From a virus (taxonomy: Duplodnaviria; Heunggongvirae; Uroviricota; Caudoviricetes), in IMG/VR virus record IMGVR_UViG_638341087_000002: a stretch of 26,225 nucleotides of DNA. One strand, given 5' to 3'. The stretch's first letter is position 1. Each line of letters opens with the position of its first letter. Made by a program: the position numbers and the translations under genes. The notes below the pieces were generated by a model that worked only from the letters and a program-made list of their open reading frames with translations, did no database searches and had not been told where the DNA came from. This document shows, one piece after another, positions 20,977 through 26,065 of the stretch.

Positions 20977-21192
20977 TTACTCTCCCCGTGCCGCCTTACG
21001 CCTGTCCTCTCTGATTTTGAAATACAGGTTCGTCAGGTACGTCAGCAGACCAAACAGCAGACTCCCCAGCACGCCTATTGCCGCCCACTGAGACGGGGAA
21101 ACCCTGTCCAGCAACTGCAGGAACCAGTAGCCCGTTCCCACCGCTGACGTGGTGTATGACACACCTGTTGTGATTTTTTCCATCTGGTACAT
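20977..21192 (-). CDS. S: Class II holin (pinholin, S21-like) with dual start motif
   Basis: 71 aa [71 protein letters not shown]; essentially the S21/933W holin as I remember it; Met1 and Met4 suggest antiholin/holin dual starts; GGGAG SD upstream. Confidence 0.9.
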
Positions 21193-21896: not shown

Positions 21897-23843
21897 TCAT
21901 GCCGCAGTGTCTGTGCTGTTCACTTCCACCGCAATGCTGTCTATCAGTACCGGGTAAGTCGCACCTCTGGTAATGTCTGTCACATGCAGTTTATCCGCCG
22001 CAAAGGCACTGACCGGTGACTGCGTCAGCGTGAACGGTGTGCCATCCTGACCATCAATAACCGGCGTCACCTGCAGGCTGTTATTCCCGGCAAAGCGGAA
22101 AGCCAGCGTATGCCATTCGTTATCAAATGCGCCAAAGGTTCCCAGTTTCAGGTTGTTTGTCGCCACTTTCGCATTGTGGTACATCACATTCAGGTCTTTT
22201 GCATCTGTCTGGATGTAGAACGCTGCCAGCAGGTTATTCCCCCCGTCTCCGGTCAGGGCAACGCCCTGTGGCAGTGAAGATACCGGCCAGTAAAACGCCA
22301 TAACATACTGGTTCGCAGCCAGCNCTCCCGAAACCTTAAAGCGGCAGCGAATCTGCCCCCCTTTCTGTAACAGAGCCGCACCGTTGCCCGCGGCGTACTC
22401 CAGCACCCAGCTGCTTTTACCGGCTTCCTTGGTCAGCTTCACTGCCTTACCTCCGGTTCCCTCCGCATCGCTGACCACTTCTGCCCTGCCGCCACTGGCT
22501 GACCATCCCTGTACTTTCAGGCTTCCCTCTGACTCGCTGGCAAGGTAAGAGAGCAGTGTTGTGACGCCTGTGGCTTCTGCACCGGAAGGCGATGACGGGC
22601 GCACCTCTGATACTGTCGATGATGCCCCCGCGTTTAGCGCCACTCTTCCCGCATGGCGCAAAATCGCCGTTGCCAGACGGTCGGAAATAATCCCGCGGCG
22701 AGCCCATGAACTGAAATGGCTCGCCCTGTCCTGTGACGTCCAGGTGGCTGAGCTGTCACGCCATTTCGAACCGTAATATCCGATACCCGGAATGTCCGGG
22801 TCTTCTTCCGGTTTGTTCGTCGGCACATTCACCCCGTTCTCATCCGTCATGAACGGTACGAAATGGATATTCTTTTCCGTTTTGTTTTTGTAGCTGCCGT
22901 ACACCGTCTGGTACGTGGATTCGTTCTTCTGCTTCCAGAAATACGTCGTATCTCCACATATCCAGGGAACACCGCCAGCAGAGCCNCCGACGCACTGACC
23001 TGCCATATCCGCCAGGTCTGCACGGAATTTATCAACCAGCGCACCAAACTGTGCTGCGTGATTTACCGGCGTACCGCCAAAATCAAATTCCCCCTGCATC
23101 CACNCCACGGCAAACAGCACATTTTTCGGGTTCTTCTTCAGTGCTGCTTTTGTTCGACCGATAAGGTCCTTATACAGCGGCTTGTCCACACCCCAGCGGG
23201 TTGAATTCTCCGAGGCACCACTCGCGTCACTGTATGTGCCATCAGCTCCGGTGGTGAACGCTGAACCACCACGACAGCACGGAACCAGCAGAATGCCCGC
23301 ATTCGCCGGTATAAACGGCAGCAGTTTTTTGGCGATATGCAGCCCCTGCCCCACGGTTCCGTACTGCCCCTTTGACAGGTCCGCTTTCGGATGGTTAAGG
23401 CGGCTCATGTCCTGCACATCATGCAGACAATGGTCCGCCGGAATGATGTCGTTATATTTACAGGCGACACCGCCCGGTGTCACCGTACTGCGACGCGCCA
23501 GCTGCTTAATGCGCAGGTCCGGACGGTCATATGTCTCCGGCAGCGGAAGGCCTTCACCATATGCCATGCTGTTTGACTGCCCCGCCAGAACCACAACAAA
23601 GTAATACTCCGGGTCTCTGGTGGCGCTGATTACTGTGCCTTCTCCATCCGACGGCTTCACCACAACAGGTGTGCTCACATCACCTTCTGCGACAATCGCC
23701 TGAATAAGTGCTGCGCCATCATCCGTATACGAAGAAAACGGCCCGCCGTATGGTTGCCATCCTTCACGAATTTTTTGAGCAAGTGCATCAGCAAGGTCTG
23801 ACGGCGACACCGCCCTGACCACATCATAATGTTTAATCGACAT
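21897..23843 (-). CDS. nanS-p: Prophage sialate O-acetylesterase NanS-p-like (SGNH/SASA hydrolase core with N- and C-terminal accessory domains); contains ambiguous bases
   Basis: 648-aa ORF; GQSN-type motif (VLAGQSNSMAYGEG) characteristic of sialate O-acetylesterases; size and location (between the tRNA/toxin locus and the holin) match the yjhS/nanS homologue of Stx phages. Three N bases (22325, 22986, 23104). Confidence 0.8.
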   Translation of the reverse strand: MSIKHYDVVRAVSPSDLADALAQKIREGWQPYGGPFSSYTDDGAALIQAIVAEGDVSTPVVVKPSDGEGTVISATRDPEYYFVVVLAGQSNSMAYGEGLPLPETYDRPDLRIKQLARRSTVTPGGVACKYNDIIPADHCLHDVQDMSRLNHPKADLSKGQYGTVGQGLHIAKKLLPFIPANAGILLVPCCRGGSAFTTGADGTYSDASGASENSTRWGVDKPLYKDLIGRTKAALKKNPKNVLFAVXWMQGEFDFGGTPVNHAAQFGALVDKFRADLADMAGQCVXGSAGGVPWICGDTTYFWKQKNESTYQTVYGSYKNKTEKNIHFVPFMTDENGVNVPTNKPEEDPDIPGIGYYGSKWRDSSATWTSQDRASHFSSWARRGIISDRLATAILRHAGRVALNAGASSTVSEVRPSSPSGAEATGVTTLLSYLASESEGSLKVQGWSASGGRAEVVSDAEGTGGKAVKLTKEAGKSSWVLEYAAGNGAALLQKGGQIRCRFKVSGXLAANQYVMAFYWPVSSLPQGVALTGDGGNNLLAAFYIQTDAKDLNVMYHNAKVATNNLKLGTFGAFDNEWHTLAFRFAGNNSLQVTPVIDGQDGTPFTLTQSPVSAFAADKLHVTDITRGATYPVLIDSIAVEVNSTDTAA

Positions 23844-23948: not shown

Positions 23949-24157
23949 GCGCAGCCGAAAATAAAGGGATAACGATGATAGTTTGAGAAAAACAGAAATA
24001 ACACTTTTGTGGCAAAGCATGGTGCCGGGTGCCTCCCGGTGAATTCAGTATCAGCACCTGAATCCGCGATTACCCCATATTCCTTCTTGCTGATTGCCCC
24101 ACCGCACAGGGGGATTCACCATGCAGAAGTGTTTTTAATAAACAGCAAACAAAAAAA

Positions 24158-24325
24158 TCAAGCATTATGCAGGCTGTTTCTTTTTATCACCGGCCACAGC
24201 AATACCATAATGCCGCAGACCAGCACCCCATCCGCCAGCACCGACATGATTCTGCTGGTGAAATCCACCATCACCACCAGAAACAGCAGGAGTGCAGCCA
24301 CAGCCAGGCGCAGTTTTACCGTCAC
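24158..24325 (-). CDS. Hypothetical 55-aa two-TM small membrane protein, start codon overlapping the TerB-like stop
   Basis: GTG at 24323-24325 overlaps the TerB-like stop (GTGA) with GGAG 8 nt upstream; VTVKLRLAVAALLLFLVVMVDFTSRIMSVLADGVLVCGIMVLLWPVIKRNSLHNA has two hydrophobic segments. Not in the supplied track in this frame. Confidence 0.3.
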   Translation of the reverse strand: MTVKLRLAVAALLLFLVVMVDFTSRIMSVLADGVLVCGIMVLLWPVIKRNSLHNA

Positions 24326-24753
24326 AGGTGATTCTCCAGACGAAGACCCAGAACACCGGCAATCTCTTCCAGCACCTTGCGCTCTTCCGGCTCAATTTCG
24401 CCGTCTGCCTCCGCAATGGCCACCGCCACATCCAGCACATCTTCCGCTTCACGCGTATCGTGTTTCACATCCTCAATCTCGCGTAACGCGGCACGACGAC
24501 CAATTTTAAAATTGGTATCCAGCTGACCGATAATAGTTGCGCTAATCGCATTAATTTCCGAGGTAAACGCAGACAACGCAGGCTGATTACGTAAGACCTG
24601 TTCGATCTTCGCTTTCTCGGATGCCTCGCATTCACCATCTGCATAGGCCACCAGGTATGCAGCGTTAATCACCGCCTGTGCCAGATCGCGTTTCTCAAAC
24701 TTTTTAATTTCCGCTGCCGCTCTGCGGGTTTTCTTTTTGAAGATTCCAAACAT
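24322..24753 (-). CDS. TerB-like domain protein (tellurite-resistance TerB family fold), 143 aa
   Basis: ATG at 24751-24753 with AGGAA SD (track ORF starts at an upstream GTG). Two repeats of the TerB-type motif: AYADGECEASEKAKIEQVL and AEADGEIEPEERKVLEEIAGVLGL. Confidence 0.55.
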   Translation of the reverse strand: MFGIFKKKTRRAAAEIKKFEKRDLAQAVINAAYLVAYADGECEASEKAKIEQVLRNQPALSAFTSEINAISATIIGQLDTNFKIGRRAALREIEDVKHDTREAEDVLDVAVAIAEADGEIEPEERKVLEEIAGVLGLRLENHL

Positions 24754-24884
24754 CGTGACGTTCCTTTGGGTGGGTGAGCCAACGCCCGGGAGCGATCTGC
24801 CCACAGAGAAAGTCACACTGACCACTCCGTAAGCTCACCCCCGAAAGGCTCTGTGGTTGATATGCGCCGGGCGTGGCGCAGATA

Positions 24885-24909
24885 CAAAAAAGGCCCGCCG
24901 AAGCGAGCC
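24885..24909 (-). terminator. Intrinsic terminator downstream of the tRNA cluster
   Basis: Minus strand GGCUCGC-UUCG-GCGGGCC (UUCG tetraloop, one G-U pair) followed by UUUUUUG, about 14 nt after the last tRNA. Confidence 0.6.
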
Positions 24910-24922
24910 TGGAAAATAAGTG

Positions 24923-24999
24923 TGGCGCGTTGTAGTGGAGTCGAACCACTGACCGATTGCTTAGAAGGCAATTGCTCTGTCCGACTGAGCTAACAACGC
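24923..24999 (-). tRNA. argN: tRNA-Arg (anticodon UCU, reads AGA/AGG)
   Basis: Hand-folded cloverleaf: acceptor GCGTTGT/ACAACGC, D-arm GCTC..GAGC, anticodon stem ATTGC/GCAAT with loop CTTCTAA, T-arm AGTGG-TTCGACT-CCACT, discriminator G, encoded CCA. Confidence 0.8.
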
Positions 25000-25012
25000 A
25001 TGATGCTGATAA

Positions 25013-25089
25013 TGGACCGCCATCGGGGACTTGAACCCCGCGCAGCCAGCTTCGAAGGCTGGCGCTCTGTCCCGATGAGCTAATGGCGG
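25013..25089 (-). tRNA. argO: tRNA-Arg (anticodon UCG, reads CGA/CGG); atypical C1:G72 and U73
   Basis: Hand-folded cloverleaf: acceptor CCGCCAT/ATGGCGG, D-arm GCTC..GAGC, anticodon stem CCAGC/GCTGG with loop CTTCGAA, T-arm CGGGG-TTCAAGT-CCCCG, encoded CCA. Gene symbol assigned by position only. Confidence 0.65.
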
Positions 25090-25098
25090 TATGTGATA

Positions 25099-25174
25099 TG
25101 GTGGCCCTTGCTGGATTTGAACCAGCGACCTGGCGATTATGAGTCGCTCGCTCTCACCACTGAGCTAAAGGGCC
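25099..25174 (-). tRNA. ileZ: tRNA-Ile2 (anticodon CAU, lysidine-type, reads AUA)
   Basis: 76 nt GGCCCTTTAGCTCAGTGGTGAGAGCGAGCGACTCATAATCGCCAGGTCGCTGGTTCAAATCCAGCAAGGGCCACCA; near-identical to E. coli ileX/ileY as remembered; anticodon loop CTCATAA. Confidence 0.85.
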
Positions 25175-25202
25175 GAGCCAAAAAATAATAATCAGATGAA
25201 AA

Positions 25203-25916
25203 TCAATAATCAAGCCCTTGCCTGGATACATATCTGTCTGGCGGGAAGCCATAATAGCGGTGAAATACAGAAATAAAGTAGGACCTGCTTGAATAACCGC
25301 ATTTTTCTGCTATAGCCTGTCCATATCCATGCCGGGAACATAACATATTTACAGCAACACGCATCCGCTCTTCCAGCAACAAGCGACTGAACATGCCCCC
25401 TTCATTTTTCAGTTTTGTCTTTAACAAACTCTCACTCATATGCAACTGTAGAGCAATCGCACCAAGCGTCCAGCTTGCTGATATATCTGTCTGAATTATC
25501 GCCCTGACTTTGGCACTTATGCTGGATAAACATCCACTTAAAAACAATGACATCCGTTCATCTGTTTCAAACAGAGACAGGCAGGCCATCATAAGAAACA
25601 TATCCGTGGCCTCTCCGGAAAATCCCTGGCTGGTAATTAAAGCCGCAGCCAACGCAGGATTGTTGGGTTCCAGCAACAGGTAAAGCGGAATGTCAGTCAG
25701 ACGAGTCCTCGTCAGCTTATGCTGACTTTCCAGATATTGACTTACGACGGATTCGCTTATATCGACAATTTTAACTTTGCCATAATGCATAAGGAAAAGC
25801 TCCCTGATGCATTTGGTGGCCAGAACGACTGAGCCTGGCTTAAGTGACAACGTATCCTTTTCAAGAAAAATATTAATTGGGGAGCAAACCATGATAACTG
25901 AACAGACAACAGCCAT
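25203..25916 (-). CDS. AraC/XylS-family transcriptional regulator (prophage cargo gene)
   Basis: 237-aa ORF with C-terminal AraC-type double HTH (WTLGAIALQLHMSESLLKTKLKNEGGMFSRLL.EERMRVAVNMLCSRHGYGQAIAEKCGYSSRSYFISVFHRYYGFPPDRY). Start uncertain (Met1 at 25916 or Met9 at 25892; neither has a strong SD). Confidence 0.8.
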   Translation of the reverse strand: MAVVCSVIMVCSPINIFLEKDTLSLKPGSVVLATKCIRELFLMHYGKVKIVDISESVVSQYLESQHKLTRTRLTDIPLYLLLEPNNPALAAALITSQGFSGEATDMFLMMACLSLFETDERMSLFLSGCLSSISAKVRAIIQTDISASWTLGAIALQLHMSESLLKTKLKNEGGMFSRLLLEERMRVAVNMLCSRHGYGQAIAEKCGYSSRSYFISVFHRYYGFPPDRYVSRQGLDY

Positions 25917-25945: not shown

Positions 25946-25990
25946 AGCTCAATTATAGCCCCAAAAGGTAAATTATCATCAACACATAAG
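25946..25990 (-). promoter_or_regulatory. Candidate sigma70 promoter upstream of the AraC-like gene (possible late-promoter equivalent)
   Basis: Perfect -10 TATAAT on the minus strand (plus 25952-25957) 36 nt upstream of the AraC-like ATG; weak -35 candidates (TTGATG/TGATGA) 17-19 nt upstream. Confidence 0.35.
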
Positions 25991-26035: not shown

Positions 26036-26065
26036 CACAAATAAAAAGCCTTCAGGACTGAAGGC
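26036..26065 (-). terminator. Hairpin plus U-tract overlapping the stop codon of the Q-like ORF
   Basis: Minus strand GCCUUCAG-UC-CUGAAGGC (stop codon inside) followed by UUUUUAUUU. Confidence 0.45.

Follow-up and report, generated by a model that had tools for sequence, protein, structure and literature searches.

An ordinary ileZ-argN-argO tRNA operon of the Stx-phage type, with a middle arginine tRNA from an unusually unstable lineage

The locus described here raises two related questions, namely what three closely spaced tRNA genes contribute to a lambdoid prophage, and whether the middle one, whose acceptor end sets it apart from the arginine tRNAs of Escherichia coli, still is a working arginine tRNA. 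The window, by which we mean the entire 26,225-nucleotide stretch of viral DNA that was analysed, contains exactly three tRNA genes according to ARAGORN, all on the minus strand and with the anticodons CAT, TCG and TCT. They are, in gene order, ileZ, encoding a tRNA-Ile2 with the anticodon CAU (25099-25174, minus strand, 76 nt), argN, the middle gene, encoding a tRNA-Arg(UCG) (25013-25089, minus strand, 77 nt), and argO, encoding a tRNA-Arg(UCU) (24923-24999, minus strand, 77 nt); the spacers between these co-oriented genes measure 9 and 13 nt, and each gene ends in an encoded CCA. The same three genes are recovered by the Rfam tRNA model RF00005, the gathering score of which is 29, with 72.5 bits for ileZ, 58.2 for argN and 68.9 for argO (E-values of 2.6e-14, 2.3e-10 and 2.6e-13, respectively), and in each case model positions 1-71 are fully matched. 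With such scores and E-values the three calls lie far beyond chance. The nucleotides that build the tertiary core (U8, A14, G18-G19, A21, U33, G53-U54-U55-C56, A58 and C61) are present in all three genes, and the purine15:pyrimidine48 pair, read off the sequence, is kept in ileZ and argO, whereas argN has U15 and G48. The original prediction of a cluster with the anticodons CAU, UCG and UCU, encoded CCA ends, a spacing of 9-13 nt and a terminator was thus borne out by ARAGORN, Rfam, the sequence itself and a terminator scan.

To judge from its sequence, the cluster is the known ileZ-argN-argO operon of Stx-type lambdoid phages, intact but ordinary. These three genes have been annotated under these names in the Stx2 phage 933W since 1999, and it is the annotation in GenBank and RefSeq that we mean when we call the operon known; a literature search on ileZ, argN and argO, on phage tRNAs in connection with Shiga toxin and rare codons, and on the tRNA genes of 933W returned nothing relevant among the papers covered. 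That this is a named operon of Stx phages had gone unrecognised in the original prediction. When a 501-nt query around the cluster was used, 290 phage records matched, mostly those of Stx2-converting phages, and some match was found in 3067 of 5426 complete E. coli genomes, with at most 13 copies per genome. The cluster region is 100% identical to that of prophages from several STEC strains, O26 and O103 among them, and RefSeq labels the exact copies in E. coli genomes tRNA-Ile, tRNA-Arg and tRNA-Arg with no pseudogene flag. Annotated for so long and present in more than half of the complete E. coli genomes, the operon as such is of little discovery value.

The three genes are flanked, as this type of operon predicts, by a promoter-like site and a terminator, both recognised as sequence features only. 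The former, a predicted sigma-70 site found by a consensus scan (25185-25213, minus strand; TTGATT, a 17-nt spacer and TATTAT), has its 3' edge 11 nt upstream of ileZ, and its -35 hexamer and the stop codon of the preceding AraC-family gene overlap. Its position is the same as that of the putative tRNA promoter pT annotated in 933W (21082-21110, about 10 nt before ileZ), and the TATTAT hexamer is the first block that is conserved with 933W in the alignment. At the other end, a terminator scan combined with folding predicts an intrinsic terminator of the tRNA operon (24881-24910, minus strand), the hairpin of which (24910-24891) has 8 bp, is rich in G+C, carries a UUCG loop, is followed by a run of T and begins 12 nt past the last CCA; it folds with -14.6 kcal/mol (z = -4.26 with respect to shuffled sequences) and has as its 933W homologue the annotated terminator that separates argO from stxA.

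As to the neighbourhood, an AraC-family (AraC/YdeO-like) regulator (25203-25916, minus strand) lies directly upstream of the tRNAs. In E2865, the locus of which is identical, the order is RusA, DUF1133 (at most a candidate for the Q-type antiterminator), a small ORF, the AraC-like gene and the tRNAs; the first three of these, as well as the position of the antiterminator module, fall beyond the window. Downstream follow a TerB-family gene, a DUF3927 gene, a hit to the STnc100 sRNA, a SASA esterase, holin, lysozyme and Rz, and past Rz the terminase, head and tail genes. Judged by the genes downstream, the tRNAs probably occupy the cargo site within the late-region leader, where 933W has stx. 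The operon can thus serve to mark this leader and its cargo site in lambdoid prophages, be the cargo stx, as in 933W, or a TerB-family gene, as here.

Are these tRNAs matched to the codons that the prophage uses? To find out, 25 ORFs from the window, with 7663 codons in total, were set against 41 annotated core genes from the genome of the same host, with 14639 codons. ATA rises from 2.5 per 1000 codons in the core genes to 5.2 in the window (2.1-fold, p = 0.0016), AGA from 0.8 to 5.1 (6.2-fold, p = 1.4e-9), AGG from 0.75 to 6.3 (8.3-fold, p = 1.5e-13) and CGG from 3.1 to 14.5 (4.6-fold, p = 2e-20), whereas the increase of CGA from 2.9 to 4.6 (1.55-fold, p = 0.056) is not significant. The proposal that the prophage carries tRNAs for codons that are rare in its host (AUA, CGN and AGR) is supported, and of the enrichment predicted for AUA, AGA and CGA the first two are found, together with that of AGG and CGG, while that of CGA is not significant. 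In other words, the idea of a supply of rare-codon decoders holds for AUA, AGR and CGG and is weak for CGA. At the level of single genes, the AraC-like gene upstream of the tRNAs and several late genes are rich in rare codons of the AUA/AGR/CGR type; the TerB-family cargo gene directly downstream has almost none of them, and stxA2 of 933W contains 88 such codons per 1000, 15 ATA among them. GGA is also enriched 2.3-fold in the window, for which no matching tRNA is present, and the enrichment of rare codons may be a matter of base composition in phage DNA and not of adaptation.

The best explanation of the locus, which we consider to be probably correct, is that it represents a copy of ileZ-argN-argO, located within the late-region leader of a prophage from a non-O157 STEC-type E. 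coli, where it supplies decoders of rare codons. The three genes would be transcribed into one short precursor, probably from their own promoter-like site as well as by read-through from upstream, and the transcript would stop at the terminator hairpin. Processing by RNase P and by 3' exonucleases would afterwards yield the three tRNAs, each ending in CCA. The ileZ product would presumably be converted to its lysidine form by the host TilS, charged with isoleucine and thereby enabled to read AUA; the argO product would receive arginine from ArgRS and decode AGA and probably also AGG; and argN would supply the anticodon UCG, which the host lacks, and read CGA by Watson-Crick pairing and CGG by wobble. 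Together, they would make more decoders available for codons 2- to 8-fold commoner in prophage genes than in host core genes, from which the translation of late genes or of the cargo may benefit.

Within this scheme, argN calls for a closer look. K-12 has tRNA-Arg species with the anticodons ACG (argQVYZ), CCG (argX), UCU (argU) and CCU (argW) only, UCG being absent, and all four types begin with G1:C72 and have A or G at position 73. The middle tRNA had been flagged as atypical on account of its C1:G72 pair and the discriminator U73, and it does differ from all four K-12 types in these two features as well as in the anticodon UCG and in U15/G48, with an identity to any host tRNA-Arg of 42-53 out of 77 positions. 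The C1:G72 pair and U73 are a conserved trait of the lineage to which argN belongs. The base at position -1 is A here and in 87 of 90 clusters, and might lengthen the acceptor stem to 8 bp. In other respects argN is regular: all 21 of its stem pairs are Watson-Crick, with no non-canonical pair in the Rfam alignment, its minimum-free-energy fold is the exact cloverleaf, and its 7-nt anticodon loop, CUUCGAA, has U33 and A37, even though its Rfam score is the lowest of the three genes. The prospect that it might turn out to be a pseudogene or to carry another anticodon did not materialise, since NCBI annotates it as tRNA-Arg with no pseudogene flag and both ARAGORN and Rfam read UCG; for the copy in the window, a pseudogene annotation finds no support from Rfam, RefSeq, the fold or the 21 pairs.

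Whether argN can be charged with arginine is best judged from the identity elements of E. coli tRNA-Arg, which are A20, the main one, C35, U or G at position 36, and A or G at position 73 (PMC9976931). With the anticodon U34 C35 G36 and with A at position 20, argN possesses three of these four and lacks only the purine at 73. Its D-loop, AUCGGGACA, has the same 9-nt geometry as that of K-12 argQ, AGCUGGAUA, from which the assignment of A to position 20 follows, and both argN and argO resemble the host tRNA-Arg species in A20, in C35, in U36 or G36, in this D-loop geometry and in a 5-nt variable loop. C1:G72 is otherwise a determinant of tRNA-Pro, and U73 belongs to the identity sets of Gly and Cys (PMC9976931); the anticodon of argN fits none of the three. 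We also considered charging by GlyRS, given that U73, C2:G71, G3:C70 and C35 make up four of the six bacterial Gly elements (PMC9976931), and judge it unlikely because argN is without G1:C72 and C36. Since the dominant determinants A20, C35 and G36 are kept, argN most likely still is a substrate of ArgRS. It is probably also the least efficient and the most dispensable of the three tRNAs, because it is devoid of a purine at 73 and its first pair is inverted, and this would fit with its frequent decay elsewhere.

The third gene, argO, has G1:C72, G73, A20 and A37, with 21 of 21 standard pairs and no non-canonical pair in Rfam, and on the strength of these four features it is a conventional tRNA-Arg(UCU). 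G73 provides the purine discriminator of arginine identity, G1:C72 and G73 are shared with the host tRNA-Arg species, and the gene resembles the tRNA-Arg(UCU) genes of many unrelated phages. The original prediction went further and derived the two arginine tRNAs from a duplication followed by anticodon divergence, on the grounds of an identical D-arm. The D-stems, GCUC/GAGC, are indeed identical in argN and argO, but that of ileZ is identical too, and the 9-nt D-loops, AUCGGGACA in argN and AGUCGGACA in argO, differ at three of nine positions. The pairwise identity of argN and argO (50/77) is that of the background among unrelated tRNAs, as illustrated by argN and ileZ (47/77), argN and metT (48/77), and argO and proM (52/77). 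With the identity at background and the D-arms not identical, there is no evidence for a duplication, and neither claim is upheld.

How the middle gene fares in other prophages was examined by scanning viral contigs with a pattern made from the ileZ core, which gave 120 loci, and by running ARAGORN on these loci. The architecture Ile2-Arg(UCG)-Arg(UCU) accounts for 52 loci; in 22 loci Ile2 and Arg(UCU) are separated by a gap of 80-101 nt, 7 loci read Ile2-Lys(UUU)-Thr-Gly and 4 read Ile2-Lys(UUU)-Arg(UCU). Rarer architectures are also present among the 120 loci. Both the “Lys(UUU)” genes and the material in the gap are built on the scaffold of argN, that is, on its acceptor stem, U73, D arm and T arm. 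One and the same C1:G72/U73 scaffold carries UCG, UCU or CCU (Arg) or UUU (Lys) in different prophages. The remnants of about 80 nt in the middle slot of the two-gene clusters were at one point taken for randomly decayed argN, a view we abandoned as a scan of species-representative genomes assigns them to a distinct long subfamily that includes an element adjacent to yahN.

These comparisons bear directly on the alternative that argN is, in spite of its intact look, a marginal or dead passenger, which U73, the inverted first pair and the odd combination at positions 15 and 48 would leave poorly processed or charged, and which would be kept only because it sits between two selected genes, ileZ and argO. 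A perfect cloverleaf is found at slot 2 in 35 of 80 clusters and at slot 3 (argO) in 64 of 80 (p = 4e-6), and of 54 distinct haplotypes 20 have damage confined to slot 2 and 2 have damage confined to slot 3 (sign test, p = 1e-4), counts that are not phylogenetically independent. The lesions in slot 2 are of several independent kinds and comprise stem mismatches, loss of CCA, 1-nt deletions, and deletion or replacement of the anticodon arm; in one case slot 2 holds a chimera of an argN 5' part and an argO 3' part fused in the anticodon loop. Sequence diversity points in the same direction, with 30 distinct sequences among 54 UCG copies as opposed to 27 among 83 argO copies, and so do the one absent arginine identity element out of four and the lowest Rfam score. 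On the other hand, the argN copy in the window retains all its stem pairs, the tertiary nucleotides other than the 15:48 pair, the U33/A37 loop and a cloverleaf as its most stable fold. Full-length argN occurs in 253 phage records of a curated collection, nearly all of them Stx phages and 216 of them at 95-99% identity, and in the alignment of the argN family A20 is invariant, as likewise is U35, the middle base of the anticodon. Moreover, at three stem pairs the Arg and Lys versions of the scaffold differ by compensatory double changes, and the scaffold has therefore been under structural selection in the past. All in all, we take the data to mean that purifying selection is weaker on argN than on the adjacent genes, and not as proof that argN is dead, and we regard a mere passenger as unlikely. 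That the middle slot is preferentially damaged or anticodon-swapped across prophages is new with respect to the original prediction, and so are the odd relatives of its scaffold across Enterobacterales.

Somewhat less likely still, and at best doubtful, is a second alternative, in which a hitherto undescribed tRNA-like chassis would occur across the Enterobacterales and serve something other than decoding, with argN as its canonical-looking representative. The chassis would be marked by C1:G72, U73 and, in most cases, A at position -1. It derives from a scan of species-representative genomes with an acceptor-anchored pattern, which returned about 50 tRNA-like genes, the constancy of their acceptor stems being partly built in by the search pattern. 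All of them come from Enterobacterales except for one in a Chryseobacterium assembly, with a sequence identical to enterobacterial copies. Their D and T arms are conserved and their anticodon arms vary in both sequence and length, the genes measuring 65-81 nt; many have anticodon loops of 5, 6 or 8 nt, loops of 6, 7 and 8 nt form a series graded by the length of a T-run, and many score below the Rfam tRNA threshold. The anticodons that ARAGORN reads on this scaffold include UCG, UCU, CCU, UUU and many others. An 81-nt member adjoins yahN and overlaps yahM at its annotated start; it has this position in 5169 of 5426 (95%) complete E. coli genomes and is also found in other Escherichia species. 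The stand-alone relatives in other genera proved to be neither syntenic with yahM/yahN nor prophage-borne, their neighbours being ordinary chromosomal genes. If the alternative were true, the pattern of the chassis would point either to the top half of the molecule as the carrier of the function or to diversifying selection on the anticodon arm, for example in a decoy or replacement that counters tRNA-targeting toxins, or in a processing or integration signal, and argN would then not simply be a fourth arginine decoder.

A related proposal, which we hold to be very improbable, would make counter-defence the main purpose of the cluster and especially of slot 2, with spare, nuclease-resistant or decoy tRNAs directed against tRNA-targeting toxins. 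An arms race of this sort, equally improbable in our estimate, would be reflected in the unusual acceptor end and in the variable anticodon arm. Anticodon nucleases that act on tRNA-Arg or tRNA-Lys do occur in E. coli, as exemplified by colicin D, PrrC and PARIS. It speaks for the proposal that arginine and lysine anticodons alternate on the C1:G72/U73 scaffold across prophages, and that the relatives retain the acceptor, D and T arms but have a hypervariable anticodon arm. Arg and Lys are also the identities that depend most on the anticodon (PMC9976931), so that swapping the anticodon on a single chassis would be feasible. However, we identified no tRNA nuclease and no toxin either within the window or in association with it, the many relatives with loops of 5, 6 or 8 nt and sub-threshold Rfam scores rather suggest decay, their constant acceptor stem is in part a product of the search pattern, and codon usage already offers a sufficient rationale for the cluster.

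As for the first gene, the original prediction of a tRNA-Ile2(CAU) was confirmed. By its sequence, the CAU gene is an Ile2-type tRNA and not an elongator tRNA-Met: it is identical to K-12 ileX at 68 of 76 positions, as opposed to 54 of 77 for metT/metU, and it has C4:G69 and C5:G68 like ileX, pairs which we take to be the TilS determinants, where tRNA-Met has U4:A69 and A5:U68. It shares with ileX and ileY the anticodon CAU, the length of 76 nt, the D arm, the anticodon loop, the two acceptor pairs and A73, and differs from them in eight substitutions and in being phage-borne, in an operon with two arginine tRNAs. One of the substitutions creates the A27/C43 mismatch that Rfam reports at the top of its anticodon stem, its only non-canonical pair, which is kept in 85 of 125 copies. 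Its first pair is G1:C72, and RefSeq annotates it as tRNA-Ile. That the gene should nevertheless encode an elongator tRNA-Met, and the cluster hence not serve AUA, is barely credible, as the tRNA-Met label given by ARAGORN, which also appears in several GenBank phage records, reflects the CAU anticodon alone, by which ARAGORN cannot separate Ile2 from Met, whereas the ileX-like sequence and acceptor pairs, the tRNA-Ile annotation in RefSeq and in 933W (the latter specifying AUA) and the 2.1-fold enrichment of ATA in the window speak against it.

Taken together, we argue that the operon is real and already known, and that its odd middle tRNA is a member of an unusually unstable lineage. If argN is functional, E. 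coli gains through it a Watson-Crick reader of CGA that is otherwise absent from the species. What interest remains lies in whether E. coli charges and uses an arginine tRNA whose discriminator is a pyrimidine and whose first pair is inverted, and in why prophages preferentially have slot 2 damaged, anticodon-swapped or rebuilt while a relative of its scaffold is fixed beside yahN.

Among known systems, the closest counterpart is the operon of phage 933W (GenBank AF125520, 21120-21371), which is also found in VT2-Sakai, Min27, phage 86 and other Stx phages. The window and 933W have in common the three genes, their order and orientation, the spacers of 9 and 13 nt and the encoded CCA ends, and the genes of the window are identical to those of 933W at 76/76 (ileZ, 100%), 75/77 (argN, 97.4%) and 72/77 (argO, 93.5%) positions. 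The argN of 933W likewise has C1:G72 and U73, and one pair in its T stem is G:U where the window has C:G. In argO, a pair of the T stem has undergone a compensatory swap from G:C to C:G, and position 37 is A in the window and G in 933W. The 933W record assigns AUA to ileZ, “CGH; CGG?” to argN and AGA, “AGG?” to argO, and it also annotates pT, upstream terminators and a terminator before stxA2. The homology with the Stx phages is limited to the tRNA block and the terminator, and the flanks are non-homologous: in 933W, the block is preceded by Q, pR', qut and terminators and followed by stxA2B2, whereas in the window it is preceded by the AraC/YdeO-like regulator and followed by the TerB-family and DUF3927 genes.

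The larger tRNA sets of T4 and T5 have been read either as compensation for codon usage or as replacements for tRNAs destroyed by host defence. Like them, the cluster described here consists of phage-encoded, clustered and presumably co-transcribed tRNAs, the anticodons of which match codons that are over-represented in phage genes. Unlike them, it belongs to a temperate lambdoid prophage, comprises only three tRNAs, has no demonstrated link to a defence system and resides in the leader of the late operon.

Recombined and anticodon-changed copies of argN (tRNA-Arg, UCG) occur in several viral loci. In L030 and two other such loci, the 5' half of argN is joined to the 3' half of argO (tRNA-Arg, UCU), with the junction falling within the anticodon-loop sequence GCCUUCU that is common to both genes; this chimeric gene shows that the two Arg genes have recombined with each other. 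In L042, argN carries a change of G36 to U, giving a second UCU tRNA. Further lambdoid prophage clusters take the form Ile2(CAU)-Lys(UUU)-Thr(UGU)-Gly(UCC) or Ile2-Lys(UUU)-Arg(UCU) (L009, L055, L058 and others; L003 and L004, which are PPompW phages, phage Evi), and the scaffold of argN also underlies the Lys(UUU) gene in them. This Lys(UUU) gene has U73, although A73 is required for Lys identity in bacteria. As for argO, position 37 is G in the Stx2 phage 933W (L002:3180-3256) and A in the window (24923-24999) and most other copies, with G37 being found in only 4 of 83 copies of the viral set. A37, which lies beside the anticodon, is the usual t6A site for codons beginning with A.

The scaffold also has chromosomal counterparts. 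Between yahL and yahN of the E. coli E2865 chromosome there is an 81-nt tRNA-like element (L231:3501-3581) that has the acceptor stem, U73-CCA end, D arm and T arm in common with argN but, unlike argN, has its anticodon arm replaced by a stem of 7 bp capped by a 6-nt loop. Of the 5426 complete E. coli genomes, 5169 carry it, each as one copy. It overlaps the yahM start as annotated, and adjoins yahN also in other Escherichia species, including those without yahL and yahM. The element carries no RNA annotation and scores under the Rfam tRNA threshold. In other genera, among them Scandinavium, Enterobacter and Citrobacter (L187, L145, L161, L190, L203 and others, all from the species-representative genomes), the anticodon loop is the sole difference among relatives of the scaffold, reading ATTTAT, ATTTTAT, ATTTGAT, AGTTTAT or ATTTTTAT, with lengths of 6, 7 and 8 nt. 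These differences look like T-run slippage, and it is owing to this variation in loop sequence and length that ARAGORN labels the relatives Ile(tat), Lys(ttt), Gln(ttg) or a 4-base anticodon. Where checked, the genes beside them were ordinary chromosomal ones, none of them phage.

On the upstream side, the tRNAs of the window adjoin a gene for an AraC-family regulator (25203-25916, minus strand), whose top NCBIfam matches, YdeO (108 bits) and GadX (87 bits), both fall well under the cut-offs. Rare codons abound in it (ATA 5, AGG 5), and its stop codon shares bases with the -35 element of the promoter-like site of the tRNAs. Given a promoter-like site of its own and a terminator-like hairpin upstream (signals at 25952-25979 and 26048-26065), the gene looks like an inserted moron. 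An HTH gene followed by tRNAs is likewise the layout in an inducible Stx2k phage (OQ243220).

On the other side of the cluster, an STnc100 sRNA match (23981-24153, minus strand; 100.8 bits against an Rfam gathering score of 47) lies directly upstream of a SASA-family esterase ORF (21897-23843). The tRNA cluster is likewise followed by STnc100 in both Lelliottia (L207:4745-4907) and Salmonella diarizonae (L134:5749-5933). A 2026 preprint (10.64898/2026.05.13.724894) linked STnc100 with esterase genes and with PasD, a prophage sRNA, and interpreted nearby tRNA matches as integration hot spots; the tRNAs of the window, in contrast, form a phage-borne operon. Directly 3' of the tRNA terminator, where 933W carries stxA2B2, the window instead has a TerB-family ORF (24322-24753, minus strand), nearly devoid of rare codons (1/142), and a small DUF3927 ORF (~24158-24325, minus strand; coordinates from the E2865 annotation).
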